64,000 nt of DNA from an uncultured Gammaproteobacteria bacterium (lineage in GTDB: Bacteria; Pseudomonadota; Gammaproteobacteria; GCA-001735895): contig CALCSG010000217.1 of assembly GCA_937894085.1 (NCBI GenBank), forward strand, positions 2,199 through 66,198, written 5' to 3'. The position numbers and the translations under genes are program-made. Below the pieces are notes generated by a model. The model was not told the DNA's origin and ran no database searches. It saw only the letters and a list, made by a program, of their open reading frames with translations. This document shows positions 1 through 15,080 of this stretch, one piece after another (position 1 is the first letter of the stretch; every line of letters begins with the position of its first letter).

Positions 1-571
1 CATTATCTTCTAACATTGAAATAAATTTCGTAAAATCCAAGTAACGCCAGATCTTTTGATCGCTGTTCTCTGGCGGTAATAATGCTGGATGACAAGCTTT
101 TATAAAAGCAGCTAAACCCTCCTTTCGAGCTTTTAAAGCTAATTGAAAAGCCTCTTCTTCACCATATTTATTAACAGAAAAAGCTTGGCCTTTATGCTTA
201 CCATTTCCAATAGGCCAATGTGCCTGCCATACTAAACTTTTATATCTTTTGCCTTTTTTTGTGGATGACGAGTAGCTTCTATTTACGCCAGTTGCTCCTG
301 ATACGTTTCTACGATTTGCTTTTCTTTTCCCTGAAAGTGTAAGTTCAGTGTTTGGGTTTTCGTAGTACTGGCTTTTTACTGCATCTCTGAATAATTTTGC
401 AGCCTCAAGAGAGCCATCTTTACCATCATATTTATTATCATTAAAGAAATGATGGAACTTATTTCCGTCTCGCTGAAACCTTACCCACCAACCATGCAGA
501 CCTACTTTGTGAGGCACTTTAGGTTCTTGGTCTATACGAGAAATATTTGAAAGTTCTGGACTTCTTTGCAT
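1..571 (-). CDS. AP2-domain DNA-binding protein, 5' part only (gene runs off window start); start ATG at 571-569
   Basis: Reverse-strand translation from the ATG at 569-571 gives MQRSPELSNISRIDQEPKVPHKVGLHGWWVRFQRDGNKFHHFF...GKRYKSLVWQAHWPIGNGKHKGQAFSVNKYGEEEAFQLALKARKEGL, i.e. two AP2/ERF-like repeats (W..G.F.T.EEA.AYD pattern). The frame continues open to position 1. Not in the ORF track because it is truncated. Low-GC context. Confidence 0.5.
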   Translation of the reverse strand, partial: MQRSPELSNISRIDQEPKVPHKVGLHGWWVRFQRDGNKFHHFFNDNKYDGKDGSLEAAKLFRDAVKSQYYENPNTELTLSGKRKANRRNVSGATGVNRSYSSSTKKGKRYKSLVWQAHWPIGNGKHKGQAFSVNKYGEEEAFQLALKARKEGLAAFIKACHPALLPPENSDQKIWRYLDFTKFISMLEDN

Positions 572-697
572 AGGAAATAATTACCTAGGTATAACGCCCA
601 GCATCAGAGGGAAAGCGAAGTGGAGGGAGGAACGACTGGAACTTTGCTTTTTCCGGCTGCATGCAATTGTTAGCTTTTGTTAAATATAAATACACAA

Positions 698-1567
698 TTA
701 TTTGAAAACCTTATCACCAAACATTTCATAGTCATGCATAAAAGATTCAAATTGTTTCGAATTTGAGGCTTTTTCTGGGTTATCTCTAATGTACTTTTCA
801 ATTTTTTCAGTATTAATTTCTTTTCCCAACTCATTAACATGATTAGCTTTTTCGATTATGTAATCTATGAACCCATCTGGCCACTGGTATTTTCGGGGAC
901 TTATTTTACCTGATCTTAATGCTATTCTGCTTGACCTCATCTTGTTTATGTTACTGCTTTTAATAAAGCCCAAAATGATGAATGAAGGTAATTTTGTATA
1001 AGTGAAAATGTTACTAGAATTTCCTGCAATATCCATCGAAATTGTTCTTAAGAAATACCCATTAATGTTTGATGGTAACCCCTTTCCAGTTACAGACTCT
1101 ATTCTATCAACAGGGAACAAGTGCTGTTCATATTGGAATAAGTTATCGACCTTTCCTAGTATAAATTTTGATATATGGATTTCAGCATCATCAAGTAGTT
1201 GAATGTACTCTGGTGGTTTACCAGCAATATCATTTTTACTTCTAATATAAGTTAGCGTTCTCCATGAAATAGAAGCACAGAATTTAGATAACCAATCTCC
1301 ATAATTGGCATTACTTATACCGTTATTTACAAATGGATAAAATATTTTATTAGCAAATTTTGTTTCCCATTTGGAAAATATATCCTCGCAGTCACCGCAA
1401 AGCCAAAATTCTTTTGCTAAATCTTGGGCGCGTTTATGCACCTCGTTTGATTCTCGTAAAAAACCTGTAATAGAAGTTTTTTTTGACCATTTACCAATGA
1501 ACTTGGGAATAAAGTGGCTAACCTCTAGATCTTTCTTCTTTTTACAAAGTTTACATTTTCCCTGCAT
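698..1567 (-). CDS. Hypothetical Cys-rich protein with HNH-like N-terminus (CxxC...LEVSHFIP...LCGDC)
   Basis: 289-aa ORF. N-terminal CKLCKKKKDLEVSHFIPKF...WLCGDCEDIF resembles the HNH nuclease CxxC-(DH)-CxxC zinc-finger scaffold. AT-rich codon usage unlike the rest of the window. The C-terminal ~200 aa are unrecognised. Confidence 0.45.
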   Translation of the reverse strand: MQGKCKLCKKKKDLEVSHFIPKFIGKWSKKTSITGFLRESNEVHKRAQDLAKEFWLCGDCEDIFSKWETKFANKIFYPFVNNGISNANYGDWLSKFCASISWRTLTYIRSKNDIAGKPPEYIQLLDDAEIHISKFILGKVDNLFQYEQHLFPVDRIESVTGKGLPSNINGYFLRTISMDIAGNSSNIFTYTKLPSFIILGFIKSSNINKMRSSRIALRSGKISPRKYQWPDGFIDYIIEKANHVNELGKEINTEKIEKYIRDNPEKASNSKQFESFMHDYEMFGDKVFK

Positions 1568-2096
1568 TGGTGACTTCCGTATTTAAGCTAACAGTTTATT
1601 GGAAGGAATCCTTTCTATCAGGTTCTAGAAGGCTTCCTTCTATTTCTATAATCCCTGTTTTCATTACAGGATACTAATTGCGCGCCTGGCCATATCAATC
1701 AAATAACCGGGGGCCGTTACACAAAAAATTTGACACCAGTAACGACCGCTCTCATCACTTTCCTACCTAATGCAACGCATGTAAACAATGACCGAAATTA
1801 TGGATACTCATTACTGCCGAATTGCTTTAACTGACTGGCAAAACATCTTAACTAAGTCATTGGTTCGGTTGACGATGGTATCTATGTTGCGTAGCCAGCA
1901 TTACTTTTAAAATGGATTGCATCCCTTGTTTCCGTAAACGGTGCGTCCGTGCACCACTACTCCAGCTAATAACATGCCGGTATGACGGTTTCGTGTTATT
2001 TACTGAATCATCTTGCTAATCACCCTGATTTATCAACGATATCCTGGGCAACCAATCTATCAATAACTAATCGCCATAACATCTGAAACAGATCCG

Positions 2097-2342
2097 CTAA
2101 TGATCACACTTATCCATTTTCTCTTTTGATTTGGGTAACACCGATATGAGGAAGGTCGAGATCAGGATTATCGGTGACAGTAAGAGCAGGATAAAACCGA
2201 AAAACATGATGATATGCTGCAAATTCCAGATGTGGGGCACCACATGCATGGCGACCAGTATCAGCATAATACCGGCTGTAAAGAAGATAAGCGAAGCTGC
2301 CACTCCTTCGCGCATTGTTTGACAACCTAAGGTTAATAACAT
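2097..2342 (-). CDS. Small two-TM membrane protein, last gene of the cytochrome operon
   Basis: 81-aa ORF, strongly hydrophobic (two predicted helices), 30 bp downstream of the NapC/NirT-family gene on the same strand. Confidence 0.4.
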   Translation of the reverse strand: MLLTLGCQTMREGVAASLIFFTAGIMLILVAMHVVPHIWNLQHIIMFFGFILLLLSPIILISTFLISVLPKSKEKMDKCDH

Positions 2343-2372
2343 GCTTTTATCCTCAATCTATTTTTCTGATTT

Positions 2373-3020
2373 TTATTCATTTTCAGCCATTAGCTTTTTC
2401 GCTGTGCCTTTTTCCAGCCCGAACTCGAGCTCGATCATTTCATTCCAGGCAGCTCTTTTGAATGTTTTTTCATGCGGAACCTTGCGGTGTACCAGGTTGT
2501 AATGACATTCGATACAGCTTTTATCTTTAGCGTCTTCCAGGTGAATTTTACGGGTATCCGGACGATCACCGTAAATCGCCTCTTTAACATGACAGCGTTT
2601 ACAGGTTGCCGAGTCTCGATCTTTAAACCATTTCCTGGCTTCAAATGCTGCTTCTGGTAAATGCAGTGCATTCATCACGGGGTCATCATAGTTAGGGCCA
2701 AAAACAGCCCCTTTCACCTGCTTGATAACATCTTTACCTCCAATGAAATGATCCCAGGTTGCCGATATCACTCCTTCAGATACGTGACAGTCTCCACAAC
2801 TCGCCTGTACACCCGAACTGGGTTTGTAATGCTTCGACTCACGGTATGGCTCGGCAACAATTCCCATGGAATGGCAGGTCGTACAAAATTCTTCACTGCT
2901 GGTGTAATGATCAAACTCAATCAGGAAAAGAATGAACACAATACCTGCTATACCTCCAACTAACAGGGCAAACAGAACATGGCGGGTTATAAATGCGGGT
3001 AAAGGTAATTTAATCTTCAT
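2373..3020 (-). CDS. NapC/NirT/NrfH-family membrane-anchored tetraheme cytochrome c (quinol dehydrogenase)
   Basis: 215 aa with an N-terminal TM helix and four CxxCH motifs (CTTCH, CGDCH, CKRCH, CIECH) at NapC/NirT-like spacing. Overlaps the upstream octaheme gene by 11 bp. Confidence 0.85.
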   Translation of the reverse strand: MKIKLPLPAFITRHVLFALLVGGIAGIVFILFLIEFDHYTSSEEFCTTCHSMGIVAEPYRESKHYKPSSGVQASCGDCHVSEGVISATWDHFIGGKDVIKQVKGAVFGPNYDDPVMNALHLPEAAFEARKWFKDRDSATCKRCHVKEAIYGDRPDTRKIHLEDAKDKSCIECHYNLVHRKVPHEKTFKRAAWNEMIELEFGLEKGTAKKLMAENE

Positions 3021-4464
3021 TGCCTTTTCCCTGCCCGAAACCCAGTATAGGATTCGCTTTTTGCGGATGATTTAACCAGTCATGATGCTCTGAACCATTG
3101 ATATGCTTTTTGATCAGCGCATCACCTTTCTCTTTTCCAGCAACTTCACGTATCTGGGCTAGAAATTTTCCGTAAAAATCACTGCCCAGATCACTCATGC
3201 CTTTCCAGGTTGAACTGGGACTGCCCATCGCGGCACCATGCCTGGCCAGCGTTCCATGTGTATGCCACAGATTCCAGTAGGTGACTTCTAATGGTTCATC
3301 GAAAGGAAGAGGGGTCAACAGGCCTGCAGAATATAGATCCTGCATGATTGCCTGTGCAGGCTTGCCATATTTTTCATTATAAAGCTCGACCACATTATCA
3401 AATTGTGACATGGCATTTTCGCTAAACCCCTTACTGTGGCATTCCAGACAGGTTTTTGTCATCGCACCTCTGCGACGTTTAGGCGATGCAACAGCCTTAA
3501 CCTTGCCCATACTACCATCCATTTTTGAAATGCTTTCGCCACGTCCCGGTAAAGGCTCGGAGGTTGATAGTTCGCGTTTATCACCATCTTCAAAAATTAT
3601 TAAATATTGCTGTTCTGACACAGCTGAATTCAGGTTCCACGAGTCACGCATTCCAACATCGTGAGTGGATTTCATTTTTCCTGCAGCGCCCATATGACAG
3701 GTAACACAGGTAGGTGCAGCCGAATAATCCTGTCCTGCTACCCATTGATCACTGTCCATATTCATGTCTTTTTTATGTGCTTCATACATCATGCCATGCT
3801 TTGAAGTTTCATAAACTTCCTTATCGGGTGAATCGGGGCCGGAGTGACAATAAATACAGGCCTGTGGTTCACGCGCCTGTGCTTTGGAAAATGTATGCCG
3901 GCCATGACAGGCAGAACAGGAACCGACAGATCCATCAGGGTTAATTCGTCCAATACCTGAATTAGGCCAGGTGGATGGATCGAGTGAACCGTCACCACGT
4001 ACTTTAACTTCAGATCCATGGCACTTTGCACAACCCGCATCATTGATCGAAGGACTGCCAAAATGTTGAGAAAGTGCAGGCATACGGTTTTTAATAATTG
4101 ATAGAGCTTTGGTATGCACAGAACCTTTCTGTTGTTTTAATTCAGTTTCATGACAACGCCCGCAATCTTTGGGTGACACGATGGTAGCAATAATACTGCC
4201 TTCATGTTCGATAGCATCGATGTCTTCTTCATAAGCCTGATGACAATCCAGACAGTTAACATTAGCTGCCGCATGTGCACTGTTTTTCCATTGATGGGTT
4301 AATCCTGCCGAGGACCTGGCATGACAATCTACACAGGCTTTTCCTTCTTCACTACCCCAGGTACTGGAGTCCAGTGTTACTTTATCAGCCACAGCAGACG
4401 CCGAGAATAACAGGATAAATATGACTGTAAAAGCTGATAAAGGGGTCTGTGTAAAAGGCTTCAC
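3010..4464 (-). CDS. Octaheme c-type cytochrome, hydroxylamine-oxidoreductase (HAO) family-like, periplasmic
   Basis: 484 aa with a signal peptide and eight CxxCH motifs (CVDCH, CLDCH, CGRCH, CAKCH, CSACH, CIYCH, CVTCH, CLECH). No CxxCK. Coupled to a NapC/NirT (CycB-like) gene, as seen for HAO-family octahemes. Confidence 0.65.
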   Translation of the reverse strand: MKPFTQTPLSAFTVIFILLFSASAVADKVTLDSSTWGSEEGKACVDCHARSSAGLTHQWKNSAHAAANVNCLDCHQAYEEDIDAIEHEGSIIATIVSPKDCGRCHETELKQQKGSVHTKALSIIKNRMPALSQHFGSPSINDAGCAKCHGSEVKVRGDGSLDPSTWPNSGIGRINPDGSVGSCSACHGRHTFSKAQAREPQACIYCHSGPDSPDKEVYETSKHGMMYEAHKKDMNMDSDQWVAGQDYSAAPTCVTCHMGAAGKMKSTHDVGMRDSWNLNSAVSEQQYLIIFEDGDKRELSTSEPLPGRGESISKMDGSMGKVKAVASPKRRRGAMTKTCLECHSKGFSENAMSQFDNVVELYNEKYGKPAQAIMQDLYSAGLLTPLPFDEPLEVTYWNLWHTHGTLARHGAAMGSPSSTWKGMSDLGSDFYGKFLAQIREVAGKEKGDALIKKHINGSEHHDWLNHPQKANPILGFGQGKGNED

Positions 4465-4489
4465 TGCATTACTCCACTATTATTATTTT

Positions 4490-4525
4490 TAGTTATATTA
4501 AAACAGCCCCATTTAAGGGGCTAAA
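4490..4525 (-). terminator. Hairpin (agcccc-atttaa-ggggct), terminator/attenuator-like between cytochrome b and the HAO-like gene
   Basis: 6-bp GC stem at 4505-4510/4517-4522, followed on the minus strand by GTTTTAAT. Sits in the 92-bp gap between two minus-strand genes. Confidence 0.3.
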
Positions 4526-4556
4526 TTCAATTGCTGGTATTAATAAATATTTCTAA

Positions 4557-5156
4557 TTATTCTTTCTCAAAACCGAAAATCATTGCTTTGAGGTATCCAA
4601 GAAATTCATCACTGGTGGTCAAAGCCAGATACAGATGAACGATAAGAAATGCTAACAACATAAAAGCCATTGCGGTATGAATCAGCGCAATCACTAACAG
4701 GCTAACATCCCCAAGACCAATCATTGGCCAGTAAGGATAAAAAAAGTAGAGCAGACCACTTAGTACCGCAAATGGAAGCATAAAGATATGCAATGACAGG
4801 TATGCCATGCGCTGCATGGGATTTAGCTTTGAGCGTCTGGTTTTATGGTGAGGATGTTCACTACCACCAATAAATATATCCACCCCGTAATACTTCACCA
4901 TCGCTAACAATTTATTCATATTGGCAGGAATATATTGCTTCCACTCGCCGGTAACCATGTGCCAGAAAATACCCAGAAACCAGATGGCTATCAAAGACCA
5001 GGCAGCTACGATGTGAATATCAACCGCTTTTTCAAAGCCAAAAAAATCAAAAGTATCATGAATCTCAAAACCAGTTACCAGTAAGGTAATTACCAGTAAC
5101 CCCTGAGACCAGTGCCAGATCCGCTCGAAGCGGGTATACATCATGACTTCTTTCAT
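4557..5156 (-). CDS. Dihaem cytochrome b membrane subunit (Ni/Fe-hydrogenase-type cytochrome b / PhsC/CybB family)
   Basis: 199 aa with four TM helices. N-terminal RFERIWHWSQ motif and conserved His positions typical of PF01292-type cytochrome b. Start overlaps the upstream octaheme gene stop (ATGA). Confidence 0.8.
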   Translation of the reverse strand: MKEVMMYTRFERIWHWSQGLLVITLLVTGFEIHDTFDFFGFEKAVDIHIVAAWSLIAIWFLGIFWHMVTGEWKQYIPANMNKLLAMVKYYGVDIFIGGSEHPHHKTRRSKLNPMQRMAYLSLHIFMLPFAVLSGLLYFFYPYWPMIGLGDVSLLVIALIHTAMAFMLLAFLIVHLYLALTTSDEFLGYLKAMIFGFEKE

Positions 5157-6781
5157 TGTTTCTTCCTCCGTCTGGAAAATAACACTCGAACCAGACCATG
5201 CAGGCCGACCCCACCAAAAGTTCCTGCTACTGCCAGCCAGCCGATAGTGTCGAGGATGCTATTGTTATCGCGTCCCGGCATATAAAAATCTGTCAACTTA
5301 TCCAGTCTGCCGCCTTTGCTGTGGCAATCTGCACAACTTAAGGTCTGATCCTTGGGGGCAACCATATGCGCCAATGGCATGTGCATGGTGGTTTCAATGA
5401 AACCATATTCACCACTATAGTCTGCTCCCGCTTCTTTCATGGCCTCACTGATAGCACTGTCCCAGTCGTAAGATTTCCAGTAGGCAGCCTTATCCTTACC
5501 AAACAGATGGATCAGTGCCAGAGTGTTATTACCCTTGTCATAAGGTTGTTTACCGCGCATTACCTTAAAAGGCCAGATACGTGCATTCGGGTCGTCATAG
5601 GATCCGGAAAAATTATTTAACTCGACCACTTCTTGCGGATTGATTTTTTCATCCAGTTGCTTGAAATGAACATTACCGGATAACCAGGCATATTCCGGCT
5701 CAACATTTTCAGCCCATTTAAAATTTCCTTTTTTAGTGACATAGGTGACATAACCATGCTCATCTTTCATGGTGATTTCTTTTCCATCCGCATCTTTTTT
5801 ACCTGCAGTTGTCCAGTCCCACCATAATTTTGAAGGTACACCGCCTCGTGCATAAGCAGGTATGTGACAGGTCGTACAGGCTACTTTATCGGTATGATCA
5901 TTGATTTTATTATTCAAAGTCGATTTGTGTGGCGTCATCCCATGACATGACTCACAGGTAGCTCGACTATTATCATCACGTCCGGGCACATCGATACCGT
6001 GTGTATCTTTGGCAACCGGGTTATAACGACTACCTTTAACATCATGTCCATCAGTAGTATGACATTCACTACATCCAAAATTCAGGCCATCCACACCCAT
6101 GTGAACATCCAGCTCTTTTTTCGGATTGGTCATCGATGAGTCCAGATCACCGTGTTTGACTCCATCTCCGCCGCCGCCATAAAAGTGGCAGACACCGCAA
6201 TTCTCTCGACGTGTTTTACCTACCTTTTGCGCGACATCGCTTAAATCAGCCACTTTCCAGACTTTCTTACTGCCTTTCGGAAAAATCTTCTCCTTGTAGT
6301 TTGGATGACCGGCATCGGTTGGAAATTTCTTGTAGGTATCGGTAGTGTCGTGACAAACCAGACAGTCAACTTTATCTTCTGCAGTAAAATCGAAGCTGTC
6401 ATCTTTCCAGCCATAACCAATATGACAACTTGTGCAGCGTGGTTGATTACTGGTAATGGATAAACAGAAATTATTTATTACGCTTTTTTTACCGACTTCT
6501 TCACCAGTATCGGGATTGGTAAACGTCCAGTTCCAGTGCTTGGTTTTATGTAACTGTTTACTGGCCTCGGTATGACAACTGAGACAGGCTTTAGTGACTT
6601 CAGGACCTGTTTTAAAAGGTTTTTGAAGTTCTTCGAATTTACTGTGATCAGCGGTTGAAGTAGATTTTTTGGTAGTTGCACTTTCCTGCATAGCCAGACT
6701 TACACTGGCAAAACTGCTCAGATAAAGACACAGCGATATCAGAAAAGCAGATGTTTTATAACTGCTATTACGGGAAATCAT
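5153..6781 (-). CDS. Octaheme c-type cytochrome, OTR (octaheme tetrathionate reductase)-like, with C-terminal TM anchor
   Basis: 542 aa with a signal peptide and eight CxxCH motifs (CLSCH, CTSCH, CLVCH, CGVCH, CSECH, CESCH, CTTCH, CADCH). Hydrophobic C-terminal helix followed by RRRKKQ. Translationally coupled to the cytochrome b gene. Confidence 0.6.
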   Translation of the reverse strand: MISRNSSYKTSAFLISLCLYLSSFASVSLAMQESATTKKSTSTADHSKFEELQKPFKTGPEVTKACLSCHTEASKQLHKTKHWNWTFTNPDTGEEVGKKSVINNFCLSITSNQPRCTSCHIGYGWKDDSFDFTAEDKVDCLVCHDTTDTYKKFPTDAGHPNYKEKIFPKGSKKVWKVADLSDVAQKVGKTRRENCGVCHFYGGGGDGVKHGDLDSSMTNPKKELDVHMGVDGLNFGCSECHTTDGHDVKGSRYNPVAKDTHGIDVPGRDDNSRATCESCHGMTPHKSTLNNKINDHTDKVACTTCHIPAYARGGVPSKLWWDWTTAGKKDADGKEITMKDEHGYVTYVTKKGNFKWAENVEPEYAWLSGNVHFKQLDEKINPQEVVELNNFSGSYDDPNARIWPFKVMRGKQPYDKGNNTLALIHLFGKDKAAYWKSYDWDSAISEAMKEAGADYSGEYGFIETTMHMPLAHMVAPKDQTLSCADCHSKGGRLDKLTDFYMPGRDNNSILDTIGWLAVAGTFGGVGLHGLVRVLFSRRRKKQ

Positions 6782-6866
6782 GATACCCCCTCCCTAAAGT
6801 TTATTGCTTATAGTATCTCTGACCAAAGGCTGTAGACATTCATCTACAGCCTTTACCAGAACCCTC

Positions 6867-8156
6867 TTACAAGGAGTTTTCAGCCGAAGCAATCATCTTC
6901 GGAGCAGTTACATCTGTGGGGAGTTTAGTAAACTTTTTAACCAGACCAGGCCATAGCAGGTTGTAATATAACTCTGCACGAACCAGCTCTACACCTTTAG
7001 CAGGTATCGAGTATTCCAGGTCACGTTTTTCAAATGCTTTCAATCGAGTATCTGCACCCTGACCTTTTGCAGTTGGTGGACCTGTTGGCTTTCCATCACC
7101 ATCAACTAGAGTCAAAAACATAAATGCTTGTTTATCTTCTTTAGCGGGGTGGCCTTTAGCATTTTGCCAAACTACATTTCCGCTCTTATCATAAGCTGAA
7201 ATCTTTACATAGATATTTCTAAAGGGAGCGCCTGTAGGCATGGTATGTGGCTGTTTATTCTTAATCGTAACAGTCGACATTATGTTACCGCCATTCTTCT
7301 TACTGTCCATACTGAATAGTACTGAACGCTGTAACATACCCAAATCATGTCCACCGCCCATACTGTGATCGGCTACAGCATCATTAGTCGGCATGTGGCA
7401 TGACAGGCAATCAACCTGTGCATTACTGGCAATGTATTCATCACCCGTTGCACATAGAGGAACACCGTGAGAATTATTGCGCTTATCATGACAACCCATG
7501 CAAGCATCTGAACTTCTCAACTGCGTTGGGTTACTTTCCATAGGCATCGCCTGAATGGTCTTACCATCAATGGTTACCGCCTCGCCCAGATGTGGGTTCG
7601 GTTTTTGATCTGCTTCTCCACCACCAAAACCAAATGCATCACCGGCTGATGCCAGTTTCTGTAATTTAGTATTAGAATGGCGACCGGATCCCTGCAGCAC
7701 GTCAGAAACTTCATATGCCATCATACCGAGCTGCATTTTTCCATTTGCGGCGGTAGTACCTTTAAATTTTTTCAATGTATGACAGGCTACGCAGTTGACG
7801 CCTTCAGCATAGGCAGGTGTCGCGTCAAGTTTGGTCTTTTTATCTTTGGCGGCATTCGGGGCATGGCACTGTATACAAACTGGAAATTTGCCTGCTTTTG
7901 TTTTTACACCCTCCTGACCAGGATCACCAACAACGTTTCTATAAAATGTTCCATGAATGGGATCGTTGAACGCGGTACTGTTCGCATGCATCGAACCTTT
8001 CCATTGTTTATAGATTTCTTTATGGCAGGTTTTACAGGTTTCAGATGAGACCTGGTGAATTGATTTGTCAGCAAACACATTTGTAGCTGAGACTAAACTT
8101 AAACCACAAAATACAATTGCTGAAAATAACATCGAAGTTTTTGTCTTGTTGCGCAT
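6867..8156 (-). CDS. Pentaheme c-type cytochrome with a ~150-aa haem-free C-terminal domain
   Basis: 429 aa with a signal peptide and five CxxCH motifs (CKTCH, CIQCH, CVACH, CMGCH, CLSCH). First gene of the minus-strand cytochrome cluster, with a 494-bp AT-rich upstream region. Confidence 0.7.
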   Translation of the reverse strand: MRNKTKTSMLFSAIVFCGLSLVSATNVFADKSIHQVSSETCKTCHKEIYKQWKGSMHANSTAFNDPIHGTFYRNVVGDPGQEGVKTKAGKFPVCIQCHAPNAAKDKKTKLDATPAYAEGVNCVACHTLKKFKGTTAANGKMQLGMMAYEVSDVLQGSGRHSNTKLQKLASAGDAFGFGGGEADQKPNPHLGEAVTIDGKTIQAMPMESNPTQLRSSDACMGCHDKRNNSHGVPLCATGDEYIASNAQVDCLSCHMPTNDAVADHSMGGGHDLGMLQRSVLFSMDSKKNGGNIMSTVTIKNKQPHTMPTGAPFRNIYVKISAYDKSGNVVWQNAKGHPAKEDKQAFMFLTLVDGDGKPTGPPTAKGQGADTRLKAFEKRDLEYSIPAKGVELVRAELYYNLLWPGLVKKFTKLPTDVTAPKMIASAENSL

Positions 8157-8650: not shown

Positions 8651-11542
8651 TTATATTTGAGCTAAAAGTAGTTTTTTCATTTCAGCAGAGGGCACTGCCG
8701 GACTAAACAAATATCCCTGCATCTGATCACAGCCCTCAGCAAGCAATAGCTCAAATTGCTGAGGAGTTTCCACACCTTCGGCGATCAGATGCAGGTTCAT
8801 GCTTTTACCTAAGGCTATAATAGCCCGGGTAATTGCCAGATCCTCCTGGTCGCCGGGTAGATCACGCACAAATTCACGATCAATTTTCAATTTATCTACC
8901 GGAAACCGCTTTAGATAACTGAGCGATGAATAACCTGTCCCAAAGTCATCAATGGCTAAATCGACTCCCAAAGATTTTAATGCATTGAGTGTATGAATCG
9001 CCTGCTCGGCATTTTCCATTAACATGCTTTCGGTTATTTCCAGCTCAAGATAACCAGCATCAAGCCCGGATATCTGCAATATCTGCTGCACTTGCGAAAC
9101 AATATCAGCTTGAGTGAGCTGACGTGCTGATAAATTGACTGACATTTTTAGCGCAGGTAACCCGGCCCGCTGCCACTCAACGGCCTGACGACAGGCCTCG
9201 AACAGTACCCACTTTCCTATCGGTTCTATCAACCCGCTTTCTTCTGCGAAGGGAATAAACTGGTTTGGAGATACCAGACCTGTTTGCGGATGCTCCCAGC
9301 GTATCAGAGCTTCCATGCCAACTATCTGGTTAGAACTTAATTCGATCTGAGGTTGATAATAAAGACGAAATTCTTCACGATTTAACGCATGCCGCAAATC
9401 AACCTGAAGCTTTTGACGCTCTTTGGCGATGGCTGTCAGAGTATCAGAAAAGTACTGAAATCCATTGCGCCCCAGGTCTTTAGCCCGATACATAGCAGCA
9501 TCCGCATTTTTAATCAGGGTGTCGACATTTTCGCCCTGCTCAGGATAAATCGAGATACCGATACTACTGGAAACAAAAAGCTCATGACCGTCAATAGCAA
9601 ACGGCTTTCTGAATCTTTCCAGTATCTTCTCTGCGACCAGAGCGGCATCCTGTGGTTGATCAATCTGCTCAACCAGAATTAAAAACTCATCGCCACCCTG
9701 ACGTGCAACGGTATCACCCTGACGCACAATTTCCTTTAAAATCGTTGACGCACTCTGTAATAATTTATCGCCTACCGCATGCCCAAGAGAGTCATTGACC
9801 TCCTTAAAATTATCCAGATCTATGAACAATAAAGCCATATTCACTTTGCTTCGACTGGCTCGATGAATGGCATGTTCCAGGCGTAACTGAAATAACATGC
9901 GATTCGGTAAATTCGTCAGCGGATCGTGATGTGATAAATATTCAAGTCGCTGCTGGGTTTCTTTAATTGCACTTATATCACCGAAAACACCTACATAATT
10001 TGTCAGCTTACCGGTTTCATCTTTGAGTGTATTTATAGTCAGCCACTCCGGGTAAAGCTCACCTGATTTGCGCCTATTCCAGATTTCTCCCTGCCAATAA
10101 CCTTTTGCCTTAATAGATGACCACATTTCTATAAAGAAAGGGTTTTTATGTTGCCCGGAATGCAGGAATGAGGGATTCCTGCCGATGACTTCCTGTTCGC
10201 TATAACCAGTAATTTCTGTAAATGCCGGGTTGACACTGACAATATTGACATCAGCATCGGCAATAATCACACCTTCCACGGTTGACTCTACAATCTTGGC
10301 CGCCAGTAACTGCTGCTTTTCAGCCTGCTTTCGGCGCGAAATATTCCTGATGACACCTGAAATAGCCAAAGGTATACCATCATCATCCGCAATGGCTCGA
10401 GAGATAGCCTCTACGTCAACAAAATCACTATTGATACTATTTAGTTTAAACTCTGCAACGCAGTGCTCCTCCCTGGCGATAGCCTGGTCGGAAAATAGCT
10501 TCACACAACGATCATGATCTACAGGGTCAACAAATTCACTCCAGTGACGGGCCAGGGAAGACTCAACTGAATTTCCCGTAAGCTTTTCCCATGCGGGACT
10601 GAGAAACTCCCAGCAGCCATTAATATCGATACGAAAAAGCACATCTTCCATATTATTAATGACGGTTCTATAGGCTTCTCTACTTTCTTTTAATTCAGTT
10701 TCCCGTTTACCGATATTTTCCGCCATAGAATTAAATGCGAGACTTACCTGGTCCATATCCTGATCGGCTTCTCTATTCAGACGTACAGAGTAATCACCAT
10801 TTGAAAGCCTGACGGTGGCCGCATTCATACTTTTCATTCGCTTCAGAAGAATTCGATTCAACATCCAGGATGCGATAATTAAACTGACAAGAAAAATTAA
10901 TGTCTTAAGGATCAGCTCTTTTTTCAGCTCGGACAATAACCTGTCCTGGAAAAGTTGAGCGGGCAATTTTATACTTAAAATTCCCCGTAAATCATCAAGT
11001 TTATAACCATAGGCGGTATCATAATTTTCACTGATACTGGCCGGCGCATTTTTTTGTTCTCCATGGCAGACAAGACATTGGGTAACTATGCGCAGAGGTG
11101 CTGAAAAGTGATAAGCCTGTTCCCCGGTGGGTTTAATAAAAGGTACAAACCTGTCTGTCGCCTGTGGGTTCTGTCTGAAATAATTCATTGCCTCCAGTTC
11201 CACACTATCGGCCTGATTCTGAGGGTTTCTGGGTCTGTCCGAAACACTGTTAAACCATATACCATCATCAGTTAATAAATTATATTCTTTTGCGATTCTA
11301 CTAATTGAGTGAGCCGGCAAAAAACGGATAGTTTTATCATTAACGGAAATATTTTCTTCGATGAATACCCGTTGATAAACTCGCCGCATGGAAACCAGAA
11401 CACCCTGTAATATTTTTGATTCCCGGTAGATGCCGGCTTTAACGGATTCGACACTGAGTAGATAGCCACGATATTCCACCAGCCCAAATGCCAGTAACAT
11501 AATACCGCTTATTGCAAAAAGTGTTTTTGTCTGGAGATTCAT
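8651..11542 (-). CDS. Signalling protein: periplasmic haem-c sensor domain (CxxCH, DUF3365/Tll0287-like) - TM - HAMP - 2xPAS - GGDEF - EAL
   Basis: 963 aa. N-terminal TM, then a periplasmic domain with CLVCHGEQ, then a second TM plus HAMP. PAS domains, GGDEF (RQGGDEFLIL) and EAL (EALIRW...DDFGTGYSS) motifs are intact. Confidence 0.85.
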   Translation of the reverse strand: MNLQTKTLFAISGIMLLAFGLVEYRGYLLSVESVKAGIYRESKILQGVLVSMRRVYQRVFIEENISVNDKTIRFLPAHSISRIAKEYNLLTDDGIWFNSVSDRPRNPQNQADSVELEAMNYFRQNPQATDRFVPFIKPTGEQAYHFSAPLRIVTQCLVCHGEQKNAPASISENYDTAYGYKLDDLRGILSIKLPAQLFQDRLLSELKKELILKTLIFLVSLIIASWMLNRILLKRMKSMNAATVRLSNGDYSVRLNREADQDMDQVSLAFNSMAENIGKRETELKESREAYRTVINNMEDVLFRIDINGCWEFLSPAWEKLTGNSVESSLARHWSEFVDPVDHDRCVKLFSDQAIAREEHCVAEFKLNSINSDFVDVEAISRAIADDDGIPLAISGVIRNISRRKQAEKQQLLAAKIVESTVEGVIIADADVNIVSVNPAFTEITGYSEQEVIGRNPSFLHSGQHKNPFFIEMWSSIKAKGYWQGEIWNRRKSGELYPEWLTINTLKDETGKLTNYVGVFGDISAIKETQQRLEYLSHHDPLTNLPNRMLFQLRLEHAIHRASRSKVNMALLFIDLDNFKEVNDSLGHAVGDKLLQSASTILKEIVRQGDTVARQGGDEFLILVEQIDQPQDAALVAEKILERFRKPFAIDGHELFVSSSIGISIYPEQGENVDTLIKNADAAMYRAKDLGRNGFQYFSDTLTAIAKERQKLQVDLRHALNREEFRLYYQPQIELSSNQIVGMEALIRWEHPQTGLVSPNQFIPFAEESGLIEPIGKWVLFEACRQAVEWQRAGLPALKMSVNLSARQLTQADIVSQVQQILQISGLDAGYLELEITESMLMENAEQAIHTLNALKSLGVDLAIDDFGTGYSSLSYLKRFPVDKLKIDREFVRDLPGDQEDLAITRAIIALGKSMNLHLIAEGVETPQQFELLLAEGCDQMQGYLFSPAVPSAEMKKLLLAQI

Positions 11543-11685: not shown

Positions 11686-13122
11686 TTATTTAATAATTGC
11701 TGCAAACTCTTTAACCAGTGCATCAGCAGTAATACCATTAGCAAATTTAGTCACAAAGCTGCCATCCGGGGCCATTAAATAAAGGCTGGCTGTATGGTCC
11801 ATGGTATAAAGGCTCGAATCTGATTTATCTCTCGGGCCTTTTTCATACTTAACCCTGAACTGATCGGCAACCCGTTTTATCATCTGTTCAGAACCGGTAA
11901 GCCCAATCAGGCGTTGATCAAAGTAACTGACATAATTTCGTAACAGTTTTACCGTATCCCGTTCAGGATCAACAGAAATGAAATAAGGTTGAACCTGCTC
12001 TGCCAGTACACCCATCTGTTGCAGTGCCTGAGTCAATACCGTTAAACTGGTTGGACACACATCAGGGCAGGAAGTATAACCAAAAAACACCAGTGAATAT
12101 TTTCCCTTCATATCCTGTTCAGTCACAGTTTGTCCAAGATGATTGGTCAGAAAGAAACGCCCTCCCAACCCATCAATGACGGGACTATCGTCACCATAGG
12201 CCGCCATCCTTGCTTTTGCGGCAGCATCCAGATTAGCATTCAGACATCGCTTGATGACATCTGTATTGTATTCCATCAATTTAAGATAAAGTTCCGGCCC
12301 CGCTTGCAGATCAAGCCCCAGAGTATCCAGTTCACCAATATTTATACTCTGCCCTGCGGTTAACAACTGAAGATTTTTCGCTGGCATACTCTTGTCTATA
12401 AACAAACATGCAGCTTCATGACTGGTTATTCTTGTCCTGACTTTAAGCAAGTCTGTAACCCTTTCTACATCCCACGGAGAACCAGAAACTCGATCCAGTG
12501 TTTGCAGCGCATAGGCCTGCTCAAAATAATTCAGGTTGTCATAATACGAAACGCCGAGACCGGCTTTTAATCCTCGATATCCATATTCGTATTCTTTATC
12601 AATACGACGTAACGGATCCAGCATGGCCATTCGATTTCTAATATAAATATGGGAGCGGGCAGGGTCCAGCTGGACCAGCGCTTCGGTCAACTCATCTAAC
12701 ATGATGATTGCATTACGGTCATCCATCCAGAAAAAGGGATCTCGAAAATCGGGATTCTGTCGTGACGGTAAAATTTTCAGATCGGGGCTGGACAGTAACT
12801 CGATAACTTTGACCGTTTCTGGTAACTGGCTCACTGTTGACTGCAAGGTTTTTTCCAGTTCCTGGCCTACCCAGATAAATAAGCTGGATTCAGCAAGCTG
12901 CTGTTGCTGAGTTTCGCTTAACTCAAAGTTATAGGGTGTGTTTTTTCCATCAATTAACAGCAGGGGCTCGCCTATATCCTGCATCAGGCCGGAGACTATA
13001 GAATGCACCGGTTTAATACTGGTCACCACCCTGAATTTATTTGCTGACCAGGCAGGCAGACTGGTAACCATCAACCCACAACTAACGAGCAGGATAAATA
13101 GCGGAAGAATTTTTTTTATCAT
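11686..13122 (-). CDS. Fusion protein: ZnuA/TroA-like periplasmic metal-binding-fold domain + SCO1/SenC copper chaperone (thioredoxin-like, CxxxCP)
   Basis: 478 aa. The N-terminal half aligns to the ZnuA architecture (VVTSIKPVHSIV...LFIWVGQELE). The C-terminal half carries the SCO1/SenC signature GKYSLVFFGYTSCPDVCP. Signal peptide present. Confidence 0.7.
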   Translation of the reverse strand: MIKKILPLFILLVSCGLMVTSLPAWSANKFRVVTSIKPVHSIVSGLMQDIGEPLLLIDGKNTPYNFELSETQQQQLAESSLFIWVGQELEKTLQSTVSQLPETVKVIELLSSPDLKILPSRQNPDFRDPFFWMDDRNAIIMLDELTEALVQLDPARSHIYIRNRMAMLDPLRRIDKEYEYGYRGLKAGLGVSYYDNLNYFEQAYALQTLDRVSGSPWDVERVTDLLKVRTRITSHEAACLFIDKSMPAKNLQLLTAGQSINIGELDTLGLDLQAGPELYLKLMEYNTDVIKRCLNANLDAAAKARMAAYGDDSPVIDGLGGRFFLTNHLGQTVTEQDMKGKYSLVFFGYTSCPDVCPTSLTVLTQALQQMGVLAEQVQPYFISVDPERDTVKLLRNYVSYFDQRLIGLTGSEQMIKRVADQFRVKYEKGPRDKSDSSLYTMDHTASLYLMAPDGSFVTKFANGITADALVKEFAAIIK

Positions 13123-14402: not shown

Positions 14403-15080
14403 ATGCTTTTAAAATTCACTCTAGTTGTTTGTTCTTTATTGTACCTGTCTTCAGCGGTAGCTTCGGAGGTCGATTATGACCCCGATATCGGCAATGAAAT
14501 TAATGAAGTTTGTGCTGGCTGTCATGGCGAATACGGGCAGGGTGGAAAAGAAGGATTATACCCCCGACTGGCAGGTATGCCGGCTGTTTTCATCGCAAAA
14601 CAGCTTGAATTGTTCAGAAGCCACAAACGCCCTAATATGCCGATGCTGCAATATATTGATGAACGTCAAATGCCGGATCAGGACATCTTAAATATTTCCA
14701 TTTATCTTTCTAAAATAAAACTCAATACACGGTTACCCCCTGTCGATGAAACAGCCGCCGATTTTGACGCTTATGCGCGTTTGCTGGAATCTAAAAAATT
14801 AATGCAAATTCCACGCGCAAAAGGCAATGTGGAAAATGGCTTAAAACTTTACAAAAAAGAATGTGCAAGTTGTCACGGTAAAGATGGTTATGGAATAGAT
14901 AAAAAAGGCGTTCCCTTATTAGCCGGGCAATACACCAGTTACCTGTGGAAACAGGTGGATAAATTGCGTAAAAAAATCAGGATTCACGATATAGATGAAC
15001 CCGATACAGAATTACTTAATGATTTTAGTGATCAGGAGCTGACAGATATATTTGCGTGGTTATCTACAGCGGACGATTAA
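14403..15080 (+). CDS. Dihaem cytochrome c4-family protein
   Basis: 225 aa with a signal peptide and two CxxCH motifs (CAGCH, CASCH) in two c-type domains. Confidence 0.8.
   Translation: MLLKFTLVVCSLLYLSSAVASEVDYDPDIGNEINEVCAGCHGEYGQGGKEGLYPRLAGMPAVFIAKQLELFRSHKRPNMPMLQYIDERQMPDQDILNISIYLSKIKLNTRLPPVDETAADFDAYARLLESKKLMQIPRAKGNVENGLKLYKKECASCHGKDGYGIDKKGVPLLAGQYTSYLWKQVDKLRKKIRIHDIDEPDTELLNDFSDQELTDIFAWLSTADD

Follow-up and report, generated by a model that had tools for sequence, protein, structure and literature searches.

In a 64,000-nucleotide stretch of DNA from an uncultured Gammaproteobacteria bacterium (assembly GCA_937894085.1, contig CALCSG010000217.1; the whole stretch is referred to as the window), we analyzed a cluster of multihaem cytochrome genes that brings together two octahaem cytochromes of different families. 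Six co-directional genes, as originally predicted, fill positions 2097–8156 on the minus strand. These are g1 (6867–8156), coding for a 429-amino acid (aa) pentahaem cytochrome c of the Thermochromatium tepidum low-potential c552 family; g2 (5153–6781), for a 542 aa octahaem cytochrome of the OTR family (TIGR04315); g3 (4557–5156), for a 199 aa dihaem cytochrome b (Ni_hydr_CYTB; PhsC-FdnI-HydC type); g4 (3010–4464), for a 484 aa periplasmic octahaem cytochrome of the HAO superfamily, IhOCC/epsilon-Hao-like subgroup; g5 (2373–3020), for a 215 aa membrane-anchored NapC/NirT-family tetrahaem cytochrome c of the quinol dehydrogenase type; and g6 (2097–2342), for an 81 aa membrane protein with two transmembrane (TM) helices and no Pfam match. 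Both octahaems are periplasmic, each is gene-coupled to a different class of quinone-interacting membrane cytochrome, and each carries, as judged from alignments, the residues expected for catalytically open haems. Comparison with related loci showed that the cluster is made of two fixed units, c552-HAO-NapC (mostly written here as the trio, with or without the small protein) and OTR-cytochrome b, which are independently viable and linked far above chance.

Composition of the cluster

Genes g2 and g3 overlap by 4 nt, and g4 and g5 by 11 nt; the spacers measure 85 nt (g1–g2), 92 nt (g3–g4) and 30 nt (g5–g6). A scripted motif count gave 5, 8, 0, 8, 4 and 0 CxxCH haem-binding sites for g1 to g6, or 25 in all, not the 26 first claimed; that number was an arithmetic slip, since the gene-by-gene breakdown given with it also adds up to 25. 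No CxxCK and no Cx3-4CH variants were found in a motif scan of the six proteins. This density greatly exceeds chance: there are 25 CxxCH in the 2,047 aa of the cluster versus 3 in 22,498 aa elsewhere in the window, when all other six-frame open reading frames (ORFs) of at least 100 aa were used for comparison. Several metagenome contigs in ENA carry identical copies of the six-gene cluster.

The pentahaem g1 is a member of the T. tepidum low-potential c552 family by full-length homology, haem motifs and a retained extra cysteine. It matched the structure of the T. tepidum protein (PDB 5ZE8) with E = 4.5e-161 and about 60% identity over 393 aa, all five CxxCH motifs could be aligned, and its extra Cys235 corresponds to Cys241 of 5ZE8. 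The score against the c552-family profile was 708 bits. The protein has a Sec-type signal peptide, five CxxCH and, across the 27–29 orthologues in which residue conservation was measured, an invariant Cys235 and an invariant Ala310. The pentahaem was thus correctly recognized at the outset; it was, however, treated as an add-on, and c552 turned out to be the most tightly conserved partner in the cluster. In the available papers citing 5ZE8, including PMC11976967, the function of this cytochrome is given as unknown or unassigned; PMC11976967 suggests a part in sulfur metabolism, and no description of the gene context of c552 was found in these papers.

Besides 5ZE8, only one relative of g1 has a solved structure, MccSep/ExtKL of Geobacter sulfurreducens (PDB 9WT8), which the g1 family profile detected at E = 6e-10 to 9e-11. 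This distant homologue and c552 have in common an architecture of five haems and a C-terminal Ig-like domain. MccSep is a pentahaem selenoprotein that reduces polysulfide and has a His/Cys-ligated haem 2 and a catalytic selenocysteine, Sec325, whereas the c552 family has Ala at that position: the profile segment "PtGAPfrN" aligns with "PdGXPtpN" of MccSep, and all 27 c552 sequences compared have this Ala (Ala310 in g1). The distance to haem motif 5 is 15 residues from Cys235 of g1 and 20 residues from the haem-ligating Cys239 of MccSep, in a region not covered by the hidden Markov model (HMM) alignment. We rejected g1 as an MccSep-type selenoenzyme because Ala occupies the selenocysteine site, and as an ExtKL polysulfide reductase with a score of 77.9 bits against NF040886 (ExtKL), below the cut-off of 250.

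Gene g2 codes for what sequence comparison identifies as a bona fide OTR-family octahaem. It scored 643.2 bits with TIGR04315 (cut-off 375) and 233.6 bits with PF11783 (Cytochrome_cB), and matched Shewanella oneidensis OTR (SoOTR; PDB 1SP3) with E = 1e-120 over residues 51–495. It has an N-terminal signal peptide and CxxCH motifs at residues 66, 116, 140, 195, 237, 276, 302 and 483. The original prediction had raised the possibility of a Lys-ligated catalytic haem, and the alignment agrees with it: G97-K98 of g2 aligns with G55-K56 of 1SP3, in which Lys56 is the axial ligand of the catalytic haem 2, and Lys98 is invariant in 8 orthologues. At the C-terminus (5153–5260, minus strand), g2 has a hydrophobic helix rich in Gly, in which His528 is invariant, and a basic RRRKK tail; this element is kept across the clade and could serve as a membrane anchor that docks on the cytochrome b. 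Thus, g2 resembles SoOTR and BOGUAY_2386 (the OTR of a sulfur oxidizer, the orange Guaymas Beggiatoaceae, which reduces nitrite and tetrathionate in vitro; PMC6449678) in its eight CxxCH, TIGR04315 membership and haem-2 Lys ligand, and differs apparently in the C-terminal helix with its invariant His and basic tail, in being always followed, in its clade, by a dihaem cytochrome b and, in a subclade, in its linkage to c552 and the HAO-like/NapC pair. Among OTRs, tetrathionate and nitrite/hydroxylamine reductase activity is known only for SoOTR and BOGUAY_2386. Two of the related loci have, just downstream of the combined cluster and on the opposite strand, a second and divergent OTR paralogue with 47–48% identity (L101:6442–7938 and L103:6919–8424, both minus; L numbers designate the loci compared).

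The cytochrome b encoded by g3 matched PF01292 (Ni_hydr_CYTB) with 76.4 bits (cut-off 30.1). Its best NCBIfam match was PhsC (NF011582), with 89.6 bits, which is below the equivalog cut-off of 204. It has four hydrophobic segments, and H15, H48, H160 and H174 are 100% conserved in 81 sequences, a four-His set that corresponds to the classical dihaem cytochrome b pattern. Through the 4-nt overlap, g3 is translationally coupled to g2, and the predicted pairing of an OTR-like octahaem with a dihaem cytochrome b holds.

The second octahaem, g4, matched PF13447 with 88.9 bits (cut-off 22) and has eight CxxCH. The two octahaems therefore belong to different families in HMM searches (TIGR04315/PF11783 versus PF13447), as had been proposed. 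The best PDB match of g4 was IhOCC of Ignicoccus hospitalis (4QO5), with a profile E of 2.1e-51, versus approximately 1e-22 to 1e-24 for the HAO-family chains 1FGJ, 4N4J and 6T5E and 7e-18 for HDH (6HIF). In addition, g4 and IhOCC have in common an insertion between haem motifs 4 and 5, WPNSGIGRINPDGS (WPNSGIGRINPDGSxGSC), which was absent from Ruegeria pomeroyi HAO in the alignment. IhOCC has been placed as a sister to HAO/HDH and lacks P460 (Soares et al., PMC9250108). Oxidative HAOs are defined by a Tyr cross-link to the catalytic haem of the neighboring subunit, and Tyr-less members of the HAO family are reductases in vitro that do not oxidize hydroxylamine (PMC8042395). As quoted from Haase et al. 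in PMC8940962, the signature of epsilon-Hao is a Trp at the Tyr position together with a conserved Met eight residues before it.

We therefore examined the position of the cross-link Tyr in two alignments. The HAO reference was the enzyme of the R. pomeroyi haoA-haoB locus, taken from a plasmid collection, and Tyr467 of NeHAO was placed at Tyr489 of this enzyme from two aligned fragments that gave the same residue offset; in the PDB profile search, the match did not reach the C-terminal region of NeHAO. A 21-sequence MAFFT alignment was ambiguous, with Tyr489 opposite Phe430 of g4, beside the invariant Tyr431 and after a 10-residue gap. In a 47-sequence alignment (20 g4 orthologues, 26 more distant paralogues and Ruegeria HAO), the Ruegeria segment "AHVNPGGFTYSNG" stands opposite the family segment "AMSGP-DYAWWHG", so that the Tyr falls on the Trp column; the Tyr489 column has Trp in most family members and, in g4, a gap next to the invariant W420. 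The invariant M413 is opposite H481 of Ruegeria HAO, Pro416 and Gly422 match, and Tyr431 lies within a segment that Ruegeria HAO lacks. Both M413 and W420 are invariant in the 20 orthologues and 26 paralogues (consensus AAMxSPNxTWWEG). The larger alignment and the published Met...Trp criterion settle the ambiguity in favor of Trp over Phe. Neither alignment has a Tyr at the position, and the Tyr cross-link that had been suggested as a feature to look for is therefore, as judged from sequence alignment, missing from g4.

The distal pocket of g4 is also altered. The pair D/E211-S212 has Ser in 20/20 orthologues, whereas the paralogues and Ruegeria HAO keep Asp-His (D267-H268 in NeHAO); after the distal Asp, IhOCC has Val, and HAO, HAOr and the sister paralogues have His. 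By these aligned residues, g4 is a Tyr-less octahaem of the IhOCC/epsilon-Hao type with an altered distal pocket, and it is probably a reductase and not a hydroxylamine oxidizer because Trp is present at the cross-link position and Ser in place of the distal His. The assignment of g4 to the HAO-type octahaems (PF13447) was therefore upheld, and a part as hydroxylamine oxidizer is unlikely. The likeness to IhOCC and epsilon-Hao extends to the HAO-type haem order, the insertion between haem motifs 4 and 5, the Met...Trp pair without cross-link Tyr, and a tetrahaem partner of the NapC/NrfH family. The differences are that the octahaem and NapC genes overlap here and are unlinked in Nautilia (epsilonproteobacterial Hao), that c552 and the small 2-TM protein are conserved extra partners here, and that the hosts are sulfur-oxidizing Gammaproteobacteria.

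The tetrahaem g5 matched PF03264 (NapC/NirT) with 116 bits (cut-off 24.1) and has four CxxCH, an N-terminal TM helix at residues 9–39 and the conserved haem-1 motif CxxCHxM (C46 to M52). It scored below the NCBIfam equivalog cut-offs of TorC (94.6 vs 478), napC_nirT (78.9 vs 310.6) and NrfH (46.2 vs 134.2). With the 11-nt overlap of g4 and g5, the proposed coupling of the HAO-like octahaem to a NapC/NirT tetrahaem was borne out, and so were the separate membrane partners, a cytochrome b with four invariant His on one side and a NapC/NirT protein with TM helix and CxxCHxM on the other. No HaoB match was found among the six proteins, and the gene downstream of g4 is the tetrahaem and not haoB, which accompanies haoA in the Ruegeria locus. 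We also considered known systems. A Nrf (NrfA/NrfH) system was rejected: there is no CxxCK in the six proteins, and PF02335 gave 17.2 bits (cut-off 24.1), with g4 only. More generally, an nrf, mcc or dms system was rejected because CxxCK and matching HMMs were both lacking, in agreement with the view that the cluster is not one of these.

The small membrane protein g6, also foreseen, has two hydrophobic helices. Its homologues were detected by tblastn with 43–91% identity at the same place downstream of NapC in many loci. In five loci (L008, L009, L010, L011 and L098), g6 is present downstream of NapC as two diverged tandem copies, and several of these loci have a third, weaker match on the opposite strand.

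Linkage and transcript structure in related loci

Related loci were collected in two scans and analyzed by tblastn searches with the six proteins of the cluster, by clustering of ORFs and by counts that took account of available flanks. A scan of a genome collection seeded with the g4 family gave 80 loci, 37 of them orthologous (at least 53% identity) and 43 paralogous (42–48%); an OTR-seeded metagenome scan also gave 80 loci. The orthologous loci came from Thiocapsa, Halochromatium, Lamprobacter, Rhabdochromatium, Thiohalocapsa, Candidatus Thiodiazotropha and many unclassified gammaproteobacterial metagenome-assembled genomes (MAGs). We found that NapC lies directly downstream of the HAO-like gene in all 33 orthologous loci with enough sequence, and that c552 adjoins the HAO-like gene, divergently or co-directionally, in 32 of 33. 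Paralogous HAO-like loci had NapC in 1/40 and c552 in 0/34. Similarly, cytochrome b immediately follows OTR in every OTR-seeded locus with enough downstream sequence (64/64).

The two units are less tightly joined to each other. OTR was found within 5 kb of the HAO-like gene in 6 of 16 HAO-seeded orthologous loci with wide flanks, and an HAO-like gene was present in 6/23 wide-flank OTR-seeded loci; c552 is directly upstream of OTR in 12/57. OTR-cytochrome b stands by itself in 50 of the 80 OTR-seeded loci, and OTR is absent from most Chromatiaceae loci with the trio. Altogether, 23 related loci have both units adjacent, in three gene orders. The order c552>OTR>cytb>HAO>NapC>small is that of the window and of L094–L098, L101–L103, L025 and L026; c552>HAO>NapC>small>OTR>cytb is found in L021, L032, L109, L112, L116, L126 and L132; and a divergent arrangement, small<NapC<HAO / c552>OTR>cytb, in L013–L016, L018 and L134. 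In L130 and L142, c552>OTR>cytb was found and no HAO gene was detected in the available flanks. The position of c552 upstream of OTR also in such loci indicates that it associates with either module.

The closest genome is MAG Bse_11, whose HAO-like protein is 85% identical to g4. In this genome (L007:8990–9990), a deletion has removed some 1.5 kb of OTR together with the beginning of the cytochrome b gene, leaving frameshifted remnants, while c552, the HAO-like gene and NapC are intact; an assembly artefact is possible. The pairing of both families in one locus had been considered unusual. It is indeed non-random (6/16 and 6/23), but it is not unique, as 23 related loci have it. Likewise, the idea of one locus as one module was supported in that the adjacency recurs, and was not in that the units are separable and OTR is a pseudogene in the closest genome. 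A single branched electron-transfer pathway is plausible. None of sox, dsr, nap, nir and psr was conserved beside the cluster in the loci examined, and the neighbors common to Chromatiaceae loci were housekeeping genes. OTR of lucinid symbionts has been reported near soxY-S3/soxZ (PMC11237559); despite this report, the Thiodiazotropha loci that we examined had no soxYZ next to OTR.

The sister HAO-like paralogues (L042–L086, e.g. L057, L060 and L079) keep both Asp-His and Met...Trp and have no NapC or c552 neighbors. Both kinds of HAO-like gene are present in several organisms, among them Halochromatium glycolicum (L029, L057), H. salexigens (L045, L060) and Thiocapsa S07.Bin152 (L020, L079). 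The HAO-like paralogue of Parabeggiatoa (L084) may be related to the "orange octahaem cytochrome".

The spacers of the cluster contain two hairpins. Directly after the stop codon of g1 is a perfect 14-bp stem-loop (6824–6855, minus strand), and the 85-nt g1–g2 spacer folds with -28.8 kcal/mol (z = -4.75), with 0/200 shuffled sequences as stable. A strong hairpin of unrelated sequence is present at the same place 3' of c552 in all ten related loci that were folded (L094, L095, L096, L098, L101, L103, L025, L026, L130 and L142), and several of these have a U-tract. This stem-loop could be a partial terminator or an mRNA-stabilizing hairpin. Because its position and strength are kept and its sequence is not, we suggest selection for a terminator or stabilizing element that sets the stoichiometry of c552. 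The g3–g4 spacer has a terminator-like GC hairpin of 7 bp (5 G-C) followed by the U-run UUUUAAUAU (4494–4523, minus strand); this is a weak indication because folding of the whole spacer is not exceptional (z = -1.1). The stem-loops after g1 and between g3 and g4 suggest three transcription segments, g1, g2-g3 and g4-g5-g6, and not one operon. Probably, the level of c552 is above that of the other cluster products, which would fit the abundance that this cytochrome is said to have in T. tepidum.

Electron flow and rival explanations

The reading that we favor, with a probability of about 0.5, is that the cluster encodes two quinol-fed periplasmic reductases for N-oxyanions and tetrathionate that are served by one soluble pentahaem. 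In the OTR module, the octahaem with its Lys-ligated haem 2 and C-terminal anchor helix would be docked on the PhsC/FdnI-type dihaem cytochrome b. In the other module, the IhOCC/epsilon-Hao-type octahaem without P460 Tyr would be fed by the NapC/NrfH-type tetrahaem, with the 2-TM protein as a further component, and would act as a quinol:octahaem reductase resembling a reverse hydroxylamine:ubiquinone redox module (HURM). The c552, probably expressed from its own hairpin-delimited segment, may be a periplasmic electron buffer or shuttle usable by either octahaem. The most likely candidate substrates are nitrite and hydroxylamine, reduced to ammonium, for the HAO-like module, and tetrathionate and/or nitrite for the OTR module. 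With these, a sulfur-oxidizing, anaerobically respiring gammaproteobacterium would gain alternative terminal reductases with different energetic coupling. Quinol oxidation by NapC/NrfH-type proteins is electroneutral, while a PhsC/FdnI-type dihaem cytochrome b that spans the membrane can be linked to the proton-motive force (pmf); this difference in coupling energetics offers one rationale for keeping both modules.

We infer the direction of electron flow and the substrates by analogy with SoOTR, BOGUAY_2386, IhOCC, epsilon-Hao and the reverse HURM, and the part of c552 as a soluble carrier or buffer from the way in which the trio mirrors HAO-c554-cM552 of nitrifiers. Both HURM and reverse HURM consist of HAO and a cM552 of the NapC/NrfH type, with or without c554 (PMC3701875). 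The cluster has the same three parts as the nitrifier module: an octahaem as the enzyme, a multihaem protein as the soluble carrier, and a tetrahaem of the NapC family leading to quinone. It differs in that the Tyr cross-link, haoB and amo genes are all lacking, in its probably reductive direction, and in its carrier, where a pentahaem of the 5ZE8 fold, which includes an Ig-like domain, takes the place of the tetrahaem c554. Compared with T. tepidum c552 as it is known from 5ZE8, the orthologues studied here are nearly always beside HAO-like/NapC genes and at times beside OTR-cytochrome b.

Several observations weigh against two N-oxyanion and tetrathionate reductases. HAO, HAOr and the sister paralogues have retained the distal His, which is lost in the g4 clade, and the chemistry of g4 may therefore differ from nitrite or hydroxylamine reduction. 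The AlphaFold2 model of g4, made with a 20-sequence alignment, had a mean per-residue confidence (pLDDT) of 54.5 and a predicted TM-score (pTM) of 0.36 and was too poor for active-site geometry. The hairpins hint that the modules are not co-transcribed. Besides, the carriers of the trio include purple sulfur phototrophs (Thiocapsa, Halochromatium, Lamprobacter and Rhabdochromatium), which to our knowledge are not known for nitrite respiration, and c552 is reportedly, in 2019 work by Chen et al., a major and abundant soluble cytochrome of phototrophically grown T. tepidum.

The main rival, less probable than the favored reading but to be taken seriously, is a sulfur-compound redox system, in which the trio, with or without OTR-cytochrome b, acts on polysulfide or sulfur-globule sulfur, on thiosulfate/tetrathionate or on sulfite. 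It might reduce stored S0 with quinol in dark anoxia, or might pass electrons from sulfur compounds to the quinone pool. The hosts of the trio are sulfur-storing or sulfur-oxidizing Gammaproteobacteria, including anoxygenic phototrophs, and the only characterized structural relative of c552, MccSep, is a polysulfide reductase essential for S0 respiration; the invariant Cys235 of g1 (Cys241 in 5ZE8) is near the region of the haem-ligating Cys of MccSep. However, where MccSep has its catalytic Sec/Cys, the c552 family invariably has Ala, and g1 is far below the ExtKL cut-off (77.9 vs 250). The suggested part of c552 in sulfur metabolism (PMC11976967), the tetrathionate reductase activity of OTR and its reported place near soxY-S3/soxZ in lucinid symbionts (PMC11237559), and the similarity of g3 to the thiosulfate reductase subunit PhsC all point in the same direction; on the other hand, the cluster has no conserved sox, dsr or psr neighbors, and none of the loci examined had soxYZ next to OTR. 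A sulfur part has also been proposed for HAO-family proteins of non-nitrifiers (PMC9213671), and the distal His that typifies N-oxide-converting HAOs is missing from the g4 clade. Nevertheless, no HAO-family enzyme is known to act on sulfur, and the characterized IhOCC, epsilon-Hao and OTR all reduce nitrite and hydroxylamine in vitro. That the trio, with OTR-cytochrome b as an add-on, is a dedicated periplasmic sulfur-compound redox system of sulfur-storing Gammaproteobacteria appears doubtful; its role may then be, for example, the long-sought quinol-dependent reduction or mobilization of stored S0/polysulfide, or thiosulfate-tetrathionate interconversion.

It is improbable that the co-location has no functional meaning, that is, that two independent systems happen to lie in a cytochrome island and c552 works only with HAO-NapC. 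The solitary OTR-cytochrome b pairs (50/80), the trios without OTR in most Chromatiaceae, the OTR pseudogene next to an intact trio in the closest genome and the terminator-like elements between the units would all be expected if this were so. Yet the frequencies of 6/16 and 6/23 exceed by orders of magnitude what random placement of two genes in a genome a few Mb in size would give. Moreover, the units have stayed linked through three different rearrangements, and in 12/57 loci c552 is the immediate upstream neighbor of OTR, in some cases without any HAO gene detected in the available flanks. A forward, HURM-like function is very unlikely. Here, g4 would oxidize hydroxylamine or serve in NO detoxification, and electrons would pass via c552 and the NapC-type protein to the quinone pool, in keeping with the three-part make-up that mirrors HAO-c554-cM552 and with public annotations of these genes as "hydroxylamine dehydrogenase". 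However, the cross-link Tyr is replaced by Trp or Phe in either alignment, g4 has no distal His and no haoB partner, its closest structure IhOCC is without P460 (PMC9250108), and Tyr-less HAOs do not oxidize hydroxylamine (PMC8042395).

Each protein of the cluster belongs to a known family, and both OTR-cytochrome b and HAO-like/NapC pairs are known kinds of module. By the available literature, three features are new: the near-obligate linkage of a T. tepidum-type c552 to an HAO-family octahaem without Tyr and distal His and a NapC-type protein, the recurrent joining of this trio to OTR-cytochrome b in a gammaproteobacterial subclade, and the Asp/Glu-Ser pocket of the g4 octahaem clade. The linkage provides the first genomic context for the five-haem c552 and a testable hypothesis for the role of this crystallized cytochrome. 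If the two modules reduce nitrite to ammonium, they would represent an unrecognized route of dissimilatory nitrate reduction to ammonium (DNRA) in lucinid, tubeworm-type and free-living sulfur oxidizers that lack NrfA. If they act on sulfur, the known chemistry of the HAO family would be extended: g4 would be the first member with a physiological sulfur substrate, and a function would be found for c552 of purple sulfur bacteria. In either case, a single locus with two such different means of quinol coupling is a natural system in which to compare electroneutral and pmf-linked periplasmic reduction.

These results also bear on annotation. In purple sulfur bacteria and chemosynthetic symbionts, HAO-like genes are as a rule labelled "hydroxylamine dehydrogenase". 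Genes of this type appear in the literature as "hao", "nrfH" or "cytochrome c family protein" and have sometimes been over-interpreted (PMC8767323, PMC5728499). For example, a "hao" gene of Thiocapsa was taken as nitrification potential (PMC8767323), and an orphan nrfH without nrfA was described in Candidatus Venteria ishoeyi (PMC5728499), which we found also to have a c552 homologue (P0188). Both genes probably belong to the trio module or its paralogue. As the HAO-like genes of the g4 clade are part of a fixed, Tyr-less three-gene module, nitrification is unlikely.

Genes around the cluster

Downstream, the cluster is bounded by a low-GC stretch (window 1–2000), with a GC content of 0.36 versus about 0.44 in the cluster. 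It contains a 289-aa ORF without Pfam family, followed in matching metagenome contigs (L001:9369–11516; L004:3481–7045) by an AP2-like gene and a HEPN_AbiV gene, and this boundary may be a mobile or defence islet. An Rfam scan of the window gave zero matches. Upstream of g1, across a 494-nt gap and on the same strand, is a gene for a 963-aa sensor (8651–11542, minus strand) with a Tll0287-like haem-c sensor domain (one CxxCH), HAMP, PAS, GGDEF and EAL domains. A tblastn search of the roughly 6.6 kb that precede c552 in L094 and L097, two relatives with 86% identity, gave no match to this sensor. Unrelated membrane GGDEF-EAL proteins are encoded directly 3' of OTR-cytochrome b in L021 and L032. 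These genes hint at a link between cyclic di-GMP (c-di-GMP) and the cluster, which may be a coincidence.

Further upstream, at 11686–13122 (minus strand), an unusual fusion gene joins a ZnuA-type periplasmic metal-binding domain to an SCO1/SenC copper-chaperone domain; it is syntenic in L007. On the opposite strand, about 6 kb upstream of the cluster, a gene at 14403–15080 (plus strand) codes for a 225-aa dihaem c-type cytochrome with two CxxCH and matches to PF00034 and PF13442.

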